DNA of 64,000 nucleotides from Narcine bancroftii (GCF_036971445.1 NW_027212150.1:1-64000), one strand, 5' to 3'. Positions 29,955-40,063 are shown, counted from the first letter of the stretch. Notes: generated from the sequence alone by a model not told the origin. A program made the numbers and translations.

Positions 29955-30935
29955 ATGAGGAGCCCACCCCCCATCACAGCCTCTTCCCCCGGCCTCCTGC
30001 TACCTGTCCCTGGGATCGTGATGCTCGCAGTCACCATCTACCTGGTCCTGGTCTTGATGGTGGTCGTTGTCCGTCAGTGGCTGCTGGTGAGGGGGGGAGA
30101 TGGTGTGGGGGAGAGGAGAGGAGGGGGGGATGGTGGAGAGAGGGGAAGAGAGAGGAGTGGGAGAGAGGGGAAGAGGGCAAGTTGATGGTGTTGGGATAAC
30201 ACAGCCACCTGACTTTCCCCCTCTTTTGCCCCCCTCTCTCCTACCCCCTCCCCCCATCTGCTCCCCAGGCCCGGGGGTCCTGTGCCGAGTGTAGTGCCTG
30301 TGCGGAGGGAGAACCGGGACCCGGCTCGGAGTGGGCTCTCGCTCTGGCCCAGACCTGCGACTGTTGGGTGCCCACCTTAACTCAGTGTCTGGACCATTGC
30401 TGCCCCCGGGGACAGGTGAGTGGCCCAGACTCCACTGCTGACCCCTGACTTTGAACACCTCACCCCTGACCTCTTACCCCTGACCCTAACCTCATCCCTG
30501 GACCTCACCCCTGGAACTCTTGCCTGTGATCCTAGACCTCTGACCCAGAACCCCTCACACCTAACCTTAGACCACTCATCCCTGATCCCAGCCCCAAACC
30601 CTGACTCTGGTGCCCCCAATTCTCAACCGCTCAGCCCCAACGTCTTCACCTGGGACGATTGCACACCCCCCACTCTCTCTCTTCCCCTCTCCTTCCCACT
30701 CTCTTCCCTCTCCCTCTCCTCCCACCCTTTTACTCTCCCTCTCTCTCACACTTTCTCCATCCCTCTCTCTTCCCCCCTCAACCTTTCTACCCTCTCCCCC
30801 CCCCCCCCCCAGGACTGTCATTGCAGGATGTGCCTACCCTGTGGAACTGCTCCCCTCTGCGACTGTGCCTGTGCCTTTCAGCTCCCGGACTGTGAGAGCA
30901 TCAACTGCATCTGCTTCGAGATCCGCCTCCGGTGA
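29955..30935 (+). CDS. uncharacterised 133-aa single-pass membrane protein with Cys-rich C-terminal region
   Basis: Exons 29955-30086, 30269-30415, 30813-30935, all GT-AG and phase 0. Protein MRSPPPITASSPGLLLPVPGIVMLAVTIYLVLVLMVVVVRQWLL/ARGSCAECSACAEGEPGPGSEWALALAQTCDCWVPTLTQCLDHCCPRGQ/DCHCRMCLPCGTAPLCDCACAFQLPDCESINCICFEIRLR*. Confidence 0.85.
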
Positions 30936-31079: not shown

Positions 31080-31740
31080 GCCATACACCCATCAAAAAGT
31101 CCCCAGCCACACTGGTCCCACCTGCCCCTATTCCTCTAAACCCCTCCCATCCATGGACCTGTCCTACCCACACTGGTCCCACCTGCCCCATCCCTCTAAA
31201 CCCGTCCCATCCATGGATCTGTCCCACCCACACTGGTCCCACCTGCCCCTATCCCTCTAAACCCCTCCCATCCATGGACCTGTCCTACCCACACTGGTCC
31301 TACCTGCCCAATTCCTCTAAACCCATCCCATCCATGGATCTGTCCCACCCACACTGGTCCCACCTGCCCCATCCCTCTAAACCCCTCCCATCCATGGACC
31401 TGTCCTACCCACACTGGTCCTACCTGCCCCATTCCTCTAAACCCATCCCATCCATGAATCTGTCCCACCCACACTGGTCCCACCTGCCCCATCCCTCTAA
31501 ACCCGTCCCATCCATGGATGTGTCCCACCCACACTGGTCCCACCTGCCCCTATCCCTCTAAACCCCTCCCACCATGGACCTGTCCTACCCACACTGGTCC
31601 CACCTGCCCCATCCCTCAAACCCGTCCCATCCATGGATCTGTCCCACCCACACTGGTCCCACCAGTTCCTATCCCTCTAAACCCATCGCATCCATGGATC
31701 TGTCCCACCCACACTGGTCCCACCTGCTCCTCTCCCTCTG
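31080..31740. repeat. ~60 bp tandem repeat CACACTGGTCCCACCTGCCCCATCCCTCTAAACCC...CCATGGA
   Basis: About 10-11 copies, probably from a LINE tail fragment, in the putative 3' UTR. Confidence 0.9.
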
Positions 31741-31903
31741 AACTCCTCCAATACATCGACTGCCTTGGGAGCCCTTAAAGTCCTCCCTGGGTGTAAGGGG
31801 AGGGTTACATTGCGGGCAAGATGCGGAAGGAACTTTGTGTGTTGTACCTGGGACCTCAACCGGACAGAGTAAAAAGTGTATTTTCACCAAAACAAATCAA
31901 AAT

Positions 31904-31909
31904 TTTATT
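31904..31909 (-). terminator. polyadenylation signal of FIMP-like gene
   Basis: TTTATT on + (AATAAA on -) about 75 nt after the stop, followed by U-rich sequence. Confidence 0.7.
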
Positions 31910-31982
31910 TAAAAATATGTGTGAAATGAGGTGTGTTCAACTCAATCAAGTCCTCACTCTCAGCTTGGTGCGGGTAGGGGGA

Positions 31983-34900
31983 TCATCTGTGGAACAGAGA
32001 GGAGGACGAACGGTCAGGGAAGAGGTCATTAACAGTTCCTCCCAGACCATCCTCCACCTGTCCTCCCTCTCCCCACCCCTCACTCTCCCTCCCTCTCTGC
32101 CTTCCTCCCTACTTCTGCCCTCCCTCGATCTACCTCACAACCCTTCCCCCTCCGTTCCCTCTCTGACCTCCTCACTCAAACCTTCACCCTCCCCATCACC
32201 ACCTCAATTCCTCCCTCACCTAGCCCTGCCCTTACCCCCTCCCTCCCTCCACACCAATCCCACCCCTCCCTCCCACTCACTTTCTTCCTGCCTCAACCAC
32301 TCCCTCTCCACACCCCCTTCTCCCTCTCGCCTTCCCCCTGCCTCTTCCCTTCCATCTTGCCCCAACATCCTACTTCCTGCATCCCTCTGTCATCTCCCTC
32401 CCTCCATCCCCCCCCCCCCTCCCCCCCGCCCCGCAACATCCTACACTAACCGGAAGCAGAGGATCAGACCAAGCATGAAGGCAAAGAGCGAACAGAACGA
32501 TCCTGCCACCACCATCTTCATCATAGGCTCCAGGGTGTCTAGGGGAGTGGGGGGAGGGGAGCAAGGTCAGTTCCCCCAATGCCATCTCCCCCGCCCCGGG
32601 GTCAGTTCCTCCAATGCCATCTCCCCCGCCCCGGGGTCAGTTCCCCCAATGCCATCTCCACTGCCCCGGGGTCCGTTCCCCCAATCCCATCAACCCCGCC
32701 CCGGGGTCTGTTCCACCAATCCCATCACCCCCGCCCCGGGGTCCGTTCCCCCAATCCCATCACCCCCGCCCTGGGGTCCGTTCCCCCAATCCCATCACCC
32801 TAGCCCCGGGGTCAGTTCCCCCAATCCCATCAACCCCAATCCCATCACCCCCGCCCCGGGGTCCGTTTCCCCATCCCATCACACCCGCCCCGGGGTCCGT
32901 TCCCCCAATCCCATCACACCCGCCCCGGGGTCCGTTCCCCCAATCCCATCACCCCCGCCCCAGGGTCCGTTCCCCCAATCCCATCACCCCCGCCCCGGGG
33001 TCCGTTCCCCCAATCCCATCAACCCGCCCCGGGGTCCATTCCCCCAATCCCATCACCCCCGCCCCGGGGTCCGTTCCCCCAATCCCATCACCCCCGCCCC
33101 GGGGTCCGTTCCCCCAATCCCATCACCCCCGCCCCGGGGTCCGTTCCCCCAATCCCATCACCGCCGCCCCGGGGTCCGTTCCCCCAATCCCATCACCGCC
33201 GCCCCGGGGTCCGTTCCCCCAATCCCATCACCGCCGCCCCGGGGTCCGTTCCCCCAATCCCATCACCGCCGCCCCGGGGTCCGTTCCCCCAATCCCATCA
33301 CCGCCACCCCGGGGTCCGTTCCCCCAATCCCATCATCCCCGCCCCGGGGTCCGTTCCCTCAATCCCATCCCCCCGCCCCGGGGTCCGTTCCCCCAATCCC
33401 ATCCACCCAGCCCCGGGGTCCGTTCCCCCAATTCCATCCCCCCCGCCCCGGGGTCCGTTCCCCCAATCCCATCACCCCCGCCCGGGGTCCTTTCCCCCAA
33501 TCCCATCACCCCCGCCCGGGGTCCTTTCCCCCAATCACAACCCCCCCCCCGCCCCGGGGTCCTTTCCCCCAATCCCATCCCACCCCGCCCCGGGGTCCGT
33601 TCCCCCAATCCCATCCCCCCCCGCCCCGCCCCGGGGTCCGTTCCCCCAATCCCATCCCGCCCCGGGGTCCGTTCCCCCAATGCCATCTCCACTGCCCCGG
33701 GGTCCGTTCCTCCAATCCCATCAACCCCGCCCCGGGGTCTGTTCCACCAATCCCATCACCCCCGCCCCGGGGTCCGTTCCCCCAATCCCATCAACCCCAA
33801 TCCCATCAACCCCATCCCATCACACCCGCCCCGGGGTCCGTTCCCCCAATCCCATCACCCCCGGCCCGGGATCCGTTCCCCCAATCCCATCACCCCCGCC
33901 CCGGGATCCGTTCCCCCAATCCCATCACCCCCGCCCCGGGGTCCGTTCTCCCAATCCCATCACCCCCGCCCCGGGGTCCGTTCCCCCAATCCCATCAGCC
34001 CCGCCCCGGGGTCCGTTCCCCCAATCCCATCACCGCCGCCCCGGGGTCCGTTCCCCCAATCCCATCACCGCCGCCCCGGGGTCCGTTCCCCCAATCCCAT
34101 CACCGCCGCCCCGGGGTCCGTTCCCCCAATCCCATCACCGCCGCCCCGGGGTCCGTTCCCCCAATCCCATCATCCCCGCCCCGGGGTCCGTTCCCCCAAT
34201 CCCATCCCCCCGCCCCGGGGTCCGTTCCCCCAATCCCATCCCCCCCGCCCCGGGGTCCGTTCCCCCAATTCCATCCCCCCCGCCCCGGGGTCCATCCCCC
34301 CCGCCCCGGGGTCCGTTCCCCCAATCCCATCACCCCCGCCCCGGGGTCCGTTCCCCCAATCCCATCACCCCCGCCCGGGGTCCTTTCCCCCAATCCCATC
34401 ACCCCCGCCCGGGGTCCTTTCCCCCAATCCCATCACCCCCGCCCGGGGTCCTTTCCCCCAATCCCATCACCCCCGCCCGGGGTCCTTTCCCCCAATCCCA
34501 TCCCCCCCCCCGCCCCGGGGTCCTTTCCCCCAATCCCATCCCCCCCCCCGCCCCGGGGTCCTTTCCCCCAATCCCACCCCACCCCGGGGTCCGTTCCCCC
34601 AATCCCATCCCACCCCGCCCCGGGGTCCGTTCCCCCAATCCCATCCCCCCCCACCCCGGGGTCCGTTCCCCCAATCCCATCCCCCCCCGCCCCGCCCCAG
34701 GGTCCGTTCCCCCAATCCCATCCCCCACCCCACCCCGGGGTCCGTTCCCCCAATCCCATCCCCCCCCCCCCGCCCCAGGGTCCGTTCCCCCAATGCCATC
34801 ACCCCCGCCCCGGGGTCCTTTCCCCCAGTCCCATCTCCCTCTCTCCGGGGTCAGTTCCCCCAGTTCCATCTCACCATTGCCACAAGGACCACCAGCCCAG

Positions 34901-35789
34901 CTCTACTTACCACCCTGCTCCTTCTTTCTAACCCCAGGGGTCCTTGGGCAGTGATAGGGAGCAGCAGTGATAGGGAGCAGGAACTCTGGCTGGTGACCCC
35001 ATGCTCTCCTGTCTCTCCATCTCCTCTCTTTCCCTCCCCCCCCCCAAACGGGATTACTGGGCAGTGACGTGGCTGATTCATTCTCTCCACTCACTCCATC
35101 CATGTATCCTCCTCTCCCTTTCCCTCGCTCCCTCTCCCCCTCTTTCCCTCTCCTCCTCCCTCCCACCACTCACTCTCTTTCCCCCTTCTAAATTATTTCC
35201 TCGGTTCCATGACTGAACCCCTTCCCCGCAGAGTGTTGGGCAGACCTTGGTGCATGCCGGGAGTGTGGGTGGGTTTCTGGGACTCACTCTCAGGCAGATC
35301 GGGGGTCTCATTGATCCAATGATAGGTCTGCTTGATTTGTTGCTCATCGGTGTCTCCGTAATCCCACCACAGGTGTCCAGGCCCCCGGGAGCGATCAGGG
35401 GAGGCTGCCGTTGACAAAGGCACCTGAACAGGAGTCTGAGGCGTCCTGCCTGGTACTGCCAAAGTCAAGGGTCACAAGATTAAGCACTGATTCCCCCATC
35501 TGGTGTGGGGGGGGGGGGTCATGACCTGGTGAAATGACCCAGGGTCACAACCTGCACCCACATCAAGCATTGACAACTGGGTCGCAAGGTTGCGCATTGG
35601 TGAATGAATCACTCCCCGACCTCATGGGTCATGAGGTTCTGCCCCGAATTCCTGGGTCACCACCCACCACCCCCCCATTAATCCCCAACGCTAGGGTGAG
35701 GGGTCATGGGTCATGTGGAACCTACAGGAAAGAGAAGCTGCCACCAGTGCACACAAGAAGATCCCATGGAGCTCAGCAATCAGCCACAT
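31983..35789 (-). CDS. 107-aa type I membrane protein, putative FIMP/C16orf92 (fertilization-influencing membrane protein) orthologue
   Basis: Exons 35789-35726, 35455-35288, 32538-32451, 31986-31983, with GT-AG introns of compatible phases 1/1/2 and GCCATG start context. Protein MWLIAELHGIFLCALVAASLSLPGRTPQTPVQVPLSTAASPDRSRGPGHLWWDYGDTDEQQIKQTYHWINETPDLPENTLEPMMKMVVAGSFCSLFAFMLGLILCFR*. Lies next to the 3' end of TLCD3B. Confidence 0.75.
32451..32538 (-). CDS. FIMP-like exon 3 (transmembrane helix)
   Basis: ccactcccctag|AC...CG|gttagt; MVVAGSFCSLFAFMLGLILCF. Confidence 0.75.
32570..34870. repeat. 35 bp C/G-skewed minisatellite CCCCGGGGTCCGTTCCCCCAATCCCATCACCCCCG
   Basis: Dozens of copies filling intron 2 of the FIMP-like gene. 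Confidence 0.95.
35288..35455 (-). CDS. FIMP-like exon 2 (ectodomain)
   Basis: tttggcag|TA...GAG A|gtgagt; contains WWDYGDTDEQQIKQTYHWINETP. Confidence 0.75.
35726..35789 (-). CDS. FIMP-like exon 1 (signal peptide)
   Basis: gccATG...TCC T|gtaggt; MWLIAELHGIFLCALVAASLS. Confidence 0.65.
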
Positions 35790-36095
35790 GGCTGAGCCAG
35801 GGGGCATTAAGTGCCAGGAGTCGTGACCCTCTCCACCCTGGTGACATCACACAGGGTTCCAGGCAGGTCACAACCGCCCGCAACTTTTCCCTCATGGACC
35901 CACAGCTCAGCAGTCAATCAGATGCCTGGGTGGGGATTGGAATCCGTCTGTCCTCCCTTCCTCCCCCCCCCCCCCCCCCGTCCCCTCACACCTTCCCATC
36001 TCTTACCTCACCATATCCTCCCTCTTTACCACCAGAATGAGGGCAAATGAGTGCTTATGCAGAGAGAAGACAGATCCCAGTCACTGTTGAAGGGT

Positions 36096-36101
36096 TTTAT
36101 G
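36096..36101 (-). terminator. candidate variant polyA signal (CATAAA) of TLCD3B
   Basis: On the minus strand TGTA-containing, A/T-rich UTR-like sequence precedes CATAAA; no canonical AATAAA seen on - in the putative UTR. Confidence 0.4.
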
Positions 36102-37189
36102 GATACAACAGGAACTTTACAGAATTATGAAACATTTTTGTGTACAGTATGTCACAGCCCGGGCATCTCCCTGCCAGCGGTCCCCTCACATATGTCCCAA
36201 GGAGCTCCAGGGGCATTCGGAGAGTGGCCTCTCCATCTTCCTGCTCTCAAGCCTCTTCCTGCGGACCACGCTGTCTTGTCGATTGAGGGTGGAGGGAGAG
36301 GGAGGGAAAAGAACAAGAGGGGGAGAGAAAGAGAGGGGAGAAAAAGAGGGAGAGGGGGAGAGACAGTGAGGGGGAGGGAGGTGGGGGGGGAGAGAGATGG
36401 GTTTGAGGGGTAGGACGGGGAATCTTTGCCTTCCTCTCTCTGTTCTGTGCATCCCCTCCTGATGGGATAGTGTTGGGTCCGTTGAGAGGGACTTGTGGCT
36501 GAAACGCTGGCCTTCCACTCACTCCCCTCCCCCAGTAATAAATAGTCAATAAATATTTACAGCAGCAAACTCTGGAATAAATACCCTACAGAGTGGGCGA
36601 AGGTGAGGAGGGGCTCCGAGAATACATCCCAGCCCTGATACCTCCCTGACTCCACACTGACCCATTCCGGATCTTTCACTCCTCAGCCCCACACTGACCC
36701 ACTCCTGATCTGTCCCGACCCCTCATTGAACCACTCCTGACCTATCCCGACCTCTCCCTGACCTGTCCTGACCCCTTCCCTGACACCACACTGACCTCTC
36801 ACCAACCCCTTCCCTGACCTGTCCTGACTCCTCCCTGAACCACTTCTGACCTATCTCGACCCCTCACTGACTCCCTCCCTGACCCTTCACTCCTTCCTTG
36901 ACTCAAAGCTGACTTCCCACTGCCCCAACCCTGACCTGTCACTGACACACCCCTGACTGCTCCCTGACCTCTGACCCCTTGCTGACCCCACACTGACCTC
37001 TACCTTACCTCTTTGAACCTTCCCCATTCTCAGCCAGGGAGGGCAATCAGGGAGGTTGGGATTGCCCCCTCCCAGCCCTGGGTGGGGAAATAGTGCTTGG
37101 TGAAACCCCCTATCCCTCAGTCAGGGAGTTGCGATCCTTTGCCACCCACCCACTGACCAAGTGAGAAGACGGAGAAACCCATCAGCCCC

Positions 37190-37520
37190 CTAGAGAGGGA
37201 GCTGACACCCCTCTCTAACCTACAGAGGGAGGTGACACCCCTCCCCCAGAGAAGGAGCTGACACCTCTCCATCCCCTAGAGAGGGAGGTGACACTCCTTC
37301 CCCCCAGAGAGGGAGGTGACACCCCTCTTTCCCCCCCCCCCCCAGAAGGTGGTGACACCCCTCTCCCCCTGAGGAAGTGGTAACACCCCTCTCCCCCGAG
37401 AGAGGGAGGTGACACCCCTCTCCTCCTGAGGGAGTGGTAACAACCCTCTCCCCTTAGTGAGGGAGGTGACACCCCTCTCCCCCTGAGAGAAGGAGATGAC
37501 ACCCCCTCTCACCCCTCCCA
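37190..37520. repeat. ~30 bp quasi-palindromic tandem repeat AGAGGGAGGTGACACCCCTCT
   Basis: About 10 copies directly after the TLCD3B stop codon. Confidence 0.8.
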
Positions 37521-37522
37521 CA

Positions 37523-40063
<2,541 letters not shown>

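Follow-up and report, generated by a model that had tools for sequence, protein, structure and literature searches.

Current models of sperm-egg fusion in vertebrates divide the sperm factors into an old core and later additions. The closest described system to the gene considered here is FIMP (also C16orf92 or 4930451I11Rik; Pfam PF17672), whose need in sperm-egg fusion, also stated in the preliminary description of this locus, is known from mouse knockouts only (PMC7196805). The mouse gene has four exons with the transmembrane (TM) segment on an 88-bp exon 3, and its protein has a signal peptide at residues 1-23 and a TM segment at residues 80-102 (PMC7196805). The mouse exon lengths and phases used here were taken from the nucleotide figure in the supplement of that paper, according to which the isoforms, with coding sequences of 336 and 279 bp, are identical up to nucleotide 226 (the identity is given as 1 to 77 in the main text and as 75 residues in the supplement); because of this agreement and these lengths, mouse exon 3 is flanked by phases 1 and 2. 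In the human TMEM95-FIMP structure, FIMP contributes a loop (residues 62-75) and a helix (residues 76-86) with contacts at V82, F85 and I86, TMEM95 binding is abolished by the changes F68A, F69A and Y71A, and the surface by which TMEM95 contacts FIMP has also been proposed as an egg-receptor site (PMC13192804, a 2026 preprint). According to the same preprint, TMEM95 appears before FIMP by PSI-BLAST and works without FIMP in some vertebrates, and this is used to support the displacement of FIMP by an egg receptor (PMC13192804); the preprint on the SPARK complex describes the range of FIMP as limited and scattered (PMC13192892). FIMP is placed later than TMEM95 in these papers, and TMEM95, FIMP and SOF1 are treated as additional components, mammalian or scattered.

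The range of FIMP outside mammals is described differently in different sources. A 2021 paper reports no clear non-mammalian homologues (PMC8488580), and the preliminary description likewise treated the gene as restricted to mammals. This view is not correct, as two lizards and one caecilian (Pogona, Podarcis and Rhinatrema) are already included among the 51 sequences in the legend of SI Fig. S1D of PMC7196805 (2020). These FIMP-like records (accessions XP_029460801.1, XP_020654487.1 and XP_028560415.1) extend the family past mammals, as the ray candidate would. However, they are all from tetrapods, unlike the ray. The new step reported here is therefore likely the extension of the FIMP range from tetrapods to cartilaginous fish. 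Our literature search gave no paper that links FIMP to sharks or rays (the distribution figures of PMC13192804 and PMC13192892 lay outside this search), and the accessible portions of PMC11211608, PMC6123572, PMC8406655, PMC11052572, PMC13319360 and bioRxiv 2023.07.27.550750 contain no cartilaginous-fish FIMP.

Structure and transcripts of the candidate gene

The window (i.e. the whole stretch of DNA that was analysed, 64,000 nucleotides) covers the initial 64 kb of a contig of 72,117 bases. Its host had been suggested to be a cartilaginous fish, and the TMEM95 exons of this genome indeed match Narcine bancroftii records, which makes the host an electric ray. The candidate consists of four GT-AG exons (64, 168, 88 and 4 coding nt) on the minus strand, which form an open frame of 107 aa with intron phases 1/1/2; the features of the gene are listed in Table 1. 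Kyte-Doolittle means over 19 residues peak at 1.9 (residues 4-22) and at 2.3 (residues 88-106), and they are negative in all segments starting at residues 19-73 (spanning residues 19-91), which corresponds to a polar ectodomain. Judged by hydropathy, the protein has a small type I topology with a signal peptide, a short ectodomain and a C-terminal TM segment. The AATAAA at 31909 is located 74 nt beyond the stop codon. The exons with their splice sites, phases and frame, the two hydrophobic peaks around a polar stretch, and the downstream AATAAA are all found where the preliminary description had placed them. In the genome, which is 3.33 Gb in size, exon 2 matches at one place only.

Table 1. 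Features of the candidate gene and of the adjoining TLC-domain gene, in window coordinates
Feature	Position	Strand	Remarks
Last exon of upstream TLC-domain gene (TLCD3B by context)	37523..37807	minus	Pfam PF03798, E 1.2e-9; ends 1.7 kb upstream of candidate
Upstream in-frame ATG	35805..35807	minus	weaker context; adds 6 residues if used
Exon 1, coding part, 64 nt	35726..35789	minus	predicted signal peptide; ATG with A at -3, a good context; donor in phase 1
Exit of contigs from exon 1	35726	minus	toward exon 2 and toward exon 3
Intron 1, 270 nt, GT..AG	35456..35725	minus	absent from an X1 contig; unspliced cover in all 4 runs
Exon 2, 168 nt, phase 1-1	35288..35455	minus	encodes a linker rich in Pro/Thr/Ser, the aromatic motif and a short helix; can be skipped in frame
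W51-W52-D53-Y54-x-D56	35352..35369	minus	counterpart of human FIMP F68-F69-D70-Y71-x-D73 (TMEM95-binding motif); numbering of PMC13192804
W68-I69-N70-E71	35307..35318	minus	counterpart of human F85-I86-x-E88, ungapped offset 17
N70 within N-x-T sequon	exon 2	minus	from sequence
Intron 2, 2749 nt	32539..35287	minus	mostly GC-rich 35-bp tandem repeat, 49 copies in first array; removed in contigs of X1 and X2
Exon 3, 88 nt, phase 1 to phase 2	32451..32538	minus	predicted TM helix, approximately residues 84-106; first 30 nt in contig ends
Exon 4, coding part, 4 nt	31983..31986	minus	last base of R107 and TGA; known from sequence alone
AATAAA poly(A) signal	31904..31909	minus	sole AATAAA on minus strand in 31500-37600

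The transcript data are Logan assembled contigs from four runs (X1 to X4) of one study, which are presumed to represent RNA; they were aligned across 35060-36200 and show neither transcript starts, strand nor levels. A contig from X1 omits exactly 35456-35725, i.e. it joins exon 1 to exon 2, and contigs from both X1 and X2 exit exon 2 at 35288 and then read the same as exon 3 over its first 30 nt (126 loose letters are present in the X2 contig, and the 30 shown are those of exon 3). The first two junctions of the preliminary description, viz. 35726/35455 and 35288/32538, are in this manner bridged by contigs of presumed RNA origin, and the candidate is a real spliced gene. In another X1 contig 35726 is joined directly to exon 3; this join drops 168 nt in frame and would lead to a 51-aa product lacking the aromatic motif. 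In X3 and X4, exon 1 and intron 1 are covered unspliced only, and joins are absent within 35060-36200. The contig depths, which are 547 for exon 2, 243 for the join of exons 1 and 2, 582 for the join of exons 1 and 3 and 268 for the contig upstream in X1, and 6-14 in X2 to X4, are no measure of isoform or tissue level. Retention of intron 3 would lead to a stop three codons further on, and therefore the protein hardly depends on the join of exons 3 and 4. The upstream contig from X1 (2084 nt) starts at 35726, and its end would fall near 37809, close to the start (37807) of the last exon of TLCD3B. Because it reaches approximately this point, the 3' UTR of TLCD3B probably extends into the candidate's exon 1. 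Further, there is no AATAAA on the minus strand between the last exon of TLCD3B and exon 1, and due to this and the linking contig, some of the spliced molecules may be TLCD3B 3' UTR.

Comparison with FIMP and its partner TMEM95

From left to right the window contains an aldolase, a PP2A-family phosphatase, a three-exon gene for a TM/Cys-rich protein, the candidate and the TLC-domain gene. The aldolase exons are closest to aldolase A, although by a thin margin (113.7 bits for A vs 110.7 bits for C), and the phosphatase is clearly diverged from PP2A itself. Based on its C-terminus we take the phosphatase to be PPP4C, and the three-exon gene is presumably LOC112694756-like. Two paralogous TLC-domain genes were found in the genome, of which this is one, and the candidate adjoins its 3' end on the same strand, so that the TLCD3B-adjacent position within the 16p11.2 block is observed here, near aldolase A-type and PP4-like genes, as the preliminary description gave it for human FIMP. 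No gene like the candidate was found in the 50-kb region of the paralogous TLC gene (on C29), and the remaining 8.1 kb of the contig from which the window is taken (C370) contains repeats and no additional synteny. The candidate is thus similar to FIMP in being adjacent to TLCD3B in the ALDOA-PPP4C block. However, it is in tandem with TLCD3B, whereas the human C16orf92 and TLCD3B genes are convergent. The human gene order is DOC2A, C16orf92, TLCD3B, LOC112694756, ALDOA, PPP4C (PMC11848116, PMC11354020), and in comparison to it the ALDOA-PPP4C-TLCD3B block is locally rearranged in the ray.

The candidate is also similar to FIMP in its size of approximately 110 aa, in having a signal peptide, a short ectodomain and one TM segment, and in its four exons, of which exon 3 carries the TM segment and agrees with that of mouse Fimp in its length of 88 nt and its flanking phases 1 and 2. 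The comparison of intron phases with mammalian FIMP that was put forward in the preliminary description is thus in agreement around exon 3; the phase of intron 1 is absent from the mouse paper. The two genes differ in the coding length of exons 1 and 2 (232 nt in ray vs 226 nt in mouse) and in the cytoplasmic tail (1 residue vs 9 residues). Both are alternatively spliced, but the alternative form omits exon 2, and with it the motif, in the ray and exon 3, and with it the TM segment, in mouse. If exon 3 were skipped in the ray, then a product of 90 aa would result, vs 92 aa in mouse.

The comparison of the TMEM95-binding motif is limited to the 10 residues of human FIMP that are printed in PMC13192804, aligned ungapped at an offset of 17. 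At the positions of human F68, F69, D70, Y71, D73, V82, F85, I86, E88 and F93, the ray has W, W, D, Y, D, T, W, I, E and P. Five of these are identical, three are changes from F to W and two (one of them the T at V82) are mismatched. The candidate therefore shares with FIMP both the aromatic-aromatic-D-Y-x-D and the F/W-I-x-E elements at the same spacing, and all three positions that are essential for binding (F68, F69 and Y71) are aromatic, although the motif reads WWDY in the ray vs FFDY in human. The core of human FIMP, as given in the preliminary description, agrees with the residue numbers of PMC13192804 at all 9 checkable positions, and its gap-free alignment to the candidate holds across the 10 positions. 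The BLOSUM62 score of the motif (27 of 56) was reached in none of 100,000 shuffles of exon 2 (maximum 23). In the six-frame translation of 171 kb, comprising the window and 15 loci, 131,029 positions are free of stops; two of these reach the score, the candidate site among them, and the best score around the paralogous TLC gene on C29 is 23 (30,865 positions). Hence, a motif of this kind is to be expected by chance at approximately one in 130,000 positions and is by itself not unique genome-wide; it carries weight because the exon that contains it is spliced and is found where FIMP would be expected. Exon 2 contains an FFDY-type motif together with a predicted short helix, the latter being the only helix (residues 57-66) in an AlphaFold2 model of exon 2 alone that is of low confidence (pLDDT 55, too low for a fold search); the human helix 76-86 maps to ray residues 59-69, which at this confidence is a weak correspondence.

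TMEM95, the partner of FIMP, is present in the ray genome (G000:C5:198111561-198150564; protein XP_069776084.1; profile match over the cut-off), and all nine proteins found with a piece of it are elasmobranch records. In comparison with the structure 7ux0, the ray protein has K, R, V, V, I, F and W at human K67, R70, V71, V74, I77, Y87 and W90, i.e. 6 of the 7 pocket residues are identical. Across 16 elasmobranch TMEM95 rows, picked for completeness from 23 matches and cluster members, the K, R, V and V of this pocket are retained in all 16, the I in 12, and the F and W in 15 each. However, the conservation of this pocket should not be interpreted as necessarily reflecting FIMP, because the same surface is also the proposed egg-receptor site. 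A complex prediction for ray TMEM95 23-150 with candidate residues 41-77, made with neither an alignment nor folded controls, gave a score of 0.01, which speaks neither for nor against docking. Compared with the human TMEM95-FIMP heterodimer (PMC13192804), the ray thus has a TMEM95 with 6 of the 7 pocket residues and, as its putative partner, a protein that is aromatic at the three essential positions.

A profile search had been proposed in the preliminary description, and with the exons taken singly it did not return FIMP: hmmscan with the Pfam FIMP profile (PF17672) gave no match to exon 2, to trimmed cores of exon 2 or to exon 3, and a phmmer search with exon 2 against 1.84 billion representatives returned neither FIMP nor an elasmobranch copy. 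The three phmmer matches that were obtained are microbial-type repeat proteins of 458-1810 aa and were rejected as chance. Searching by words for homologues of exon 2 among lengths of 50-161 aa gave no candidate, a PDB sequence search with exon 2 gave 0 matches at E 10, and the ESM Atlas matches, which were unnamed or glycoside-hydrolase fragments of low recognition, were rejected. Across the genome, the Pfam FIMP profile found nothing (three candidates were scored, with no positive control), but this type of search missed IZUMO as well, whose profile gave nothing over the cut-off; two matches to the SOF1/LLCFC1 profile had E values above 1, were derived from repeats and were also rejected.

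Probable orthology of the candidate and alternative readings

Based on its position, exon architecture and binding motif, the candidate is likely an orthologue of FIMP/C16orf92. The deeply diverged orthologue that was put forward in the preliminary description is in this regard supported by the same three lines of evidence, whereas the profile searches with single exons, which did not return FIMP, go against it. It is, however, necessary to consider how else the observations could be interpreted. If the exons belonged to TLCD3B, as its spliced 3' UTR or a read-through tail, then the 107-aa frame would be untranslated or a decaying FIMP remnant. The X1 contig spanning from the last exon of TLCD3B to exon 1, the unspliced cover of exon 1 and intron 1 in X2 to X4, the location of the only AATAAA downstream of exon 4, the existence of the form skipping exon 2, and the lack of a protein record in the collections covered by the word search and phmmer are all in accordance with this. 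However, an intact frame over four exons, with signal and TM hydropathy and an ATG in good context, is not expected of a UTR, and neither is an exon 3 identical in length and phases to that of mouse together with the retention of binding residues; further, a dead gene is unlikely to have kept all of these features for more than 400 million years. This interpretation is in our judgement very unlikely.

It could also be argued that the gene is real but resembles FIMP only by coincidence, its product being a small type I membrane protein without relation to it. The lack of profile or HMMER support, the low overall identity, the orientation to TLCD3B (which differs from that in human) and the one other position in 171 kb that equals the motif score are in favour of such a reading. 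However, it requires four separate coincidences, viz. the adjacency to TLCD3B, a four-exon structure in which the TM exon 3 has 88 nt and lies between phases 1 and 2, the ungapped 10-position motif inside the transcribed exon 2, and the size and topology; we regard it as very unlikely. Lastly, a true orthologue of FIMP may perform a different job in rays, e.g. it may not be limited to sperm or not bound to TMEM95. The presence of the join between exons 2 and 3 in a second run (X2), the removal of the motif by exon-2 skipping and the near absence of a tail would fit with this, but the motif and the partner pocket are both kept, and a different role appears the least probable of the readings considered here. 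The candidate is thus best interpreted as a FIMP orthologue, and there is a good probability that it is a 107-residue type I membrane protein with a predicted TMEM95-docking role in sperm.

By analogy with mouse and human (PMC7196805, PMC13192804, PMC13192892), such a FIMP orthologue would be made in spermatids and, after cleavage of its signal peptide, sit on sperm as a type I membrane protein held by a single TM helix and nearly devoid of a tail. Its disordered Pro/Thr/Ser linker would lead to the WWDY loop and short helix, which may dock in the TMEM95 pocket at helices 3-4, where W51, W52 and Y54 would replace human F68, F69 and Y71 against ray TMEM95 K78, R81 and W101 (human K67, R70 and W90). 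The ectodomain and TMEM95 would, as in the mammalian proteins, form a 1:1 heterodimer, and this pair could serve the SPARK complex of sperm as an accessory module that, by analogy with mouse, would be needed for fusion after binding; the candidate would in this case be a small adaptor or cap and not the fusogen. As a speculation, the exon-2 skip, with its 51-residue signal-plus-TM product lacking the motif, could set the amount of binding-competent protein.

Implications for the age of the TMEM95-FIMP pair

If the ray gene is a true FIMP, then it contradicts the claim in PMC13192804 that TMEM95 predates FIMP, and its presence beside an intact TMEM95 pocket removes the displacement argument for cartilaginous fish. 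In this case the TMEM95-FIMP pair would be over 400 million years old and go back to the earliest jawed vertebrates. We are inclined to favour, with some reserve, the interpretation that the heterodimer is as old as jawed vertebrates and was part of the ancestral sperm fusion complex, with the patchy range of FIMP being due to losses (e.g. in zebrafish) and to annotation gaps. Under this ancestral-pair interpretation, the gene in cartilaginous fish would have been missed as it is tiny and sits in the 3' flank of TLCD3B, and rays would in addition remove the exon for TMEM95 binding by splicing. A ray FIMP implies no new mechanism, and the family was already known beyond mammals. The combination of the TLCD3B flank, the 88-nt TM exon and the motif provides a search recipe for the lineages that have been scored as lacking FIMP, and the ray gene also provides a natural FFDY-to-WWDY variant for testing the interface with TMEM95.

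Exon skipping in the FIMP candidate and in TMEM95

In run X1 (one of four public runs from a single study; assembled contigs, presumably of RNA), exon 1 of the candidate is joined to exon 3 (window 35726 to 32538, minus strand), which removes the motif exon in frame and would leave 51 aa, whereas in mouse Fimp it is the TM exon that is skipped. This loss of the motif exon is paralleled in TMEM95, where isoform X4 (protein record P0008) lacks a 19-residue exon bearing the equivalents of K67, R70, V71 and V74 (human numbering) of the FIMP-binding pocket. Within the TMEM95 intron immediately upstream of this pocket exon lies a retrovirus-like remnant, judged by eye to be gag-type in appearance.

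Coordinates of features in the window and at the ray TMEM95 locus (stretch L003)
Feature	Position	Strand	Basis	Remark
GC-rich tandem array, 35-bp unit	window 32565-34292			fills candidate intron 2
Low-complexity tandem repeats, >20 kb	window 40100-64000			inside TLCD3B intron
Three-exon gene	window 29955-30086, 30269-30415, 30813-30935	+	sequence	all phase 0
Pocket exon, TMEM95	G000:C5:198119324-198119380			in L003
Retrovirus-like remnant	L003:1-1150

Genes neighbouring the candidate

The three-exon gene encodes 133 aa with an N-terminal TM segment and a Cys-rich tail, and the protein gave no match in Pfam. It may resemble human LOC112694756; if this is correct, the gene would be the fifth 16p11.2 gene in the window and its product an uncharacterised protein conserved throughout jawed vertebrates. 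In human, LOC112694756 is listed between TLCD3B and ALDOA (PMC11848116, PMC11354020).

No AATAAA or ATTAAA is present from the TLCD3B stop to the candidate (window 35726-37807, minus strand), and the TLCD3B 3' UTR seems to extend over exon 1 and intron 1 of the candidate.
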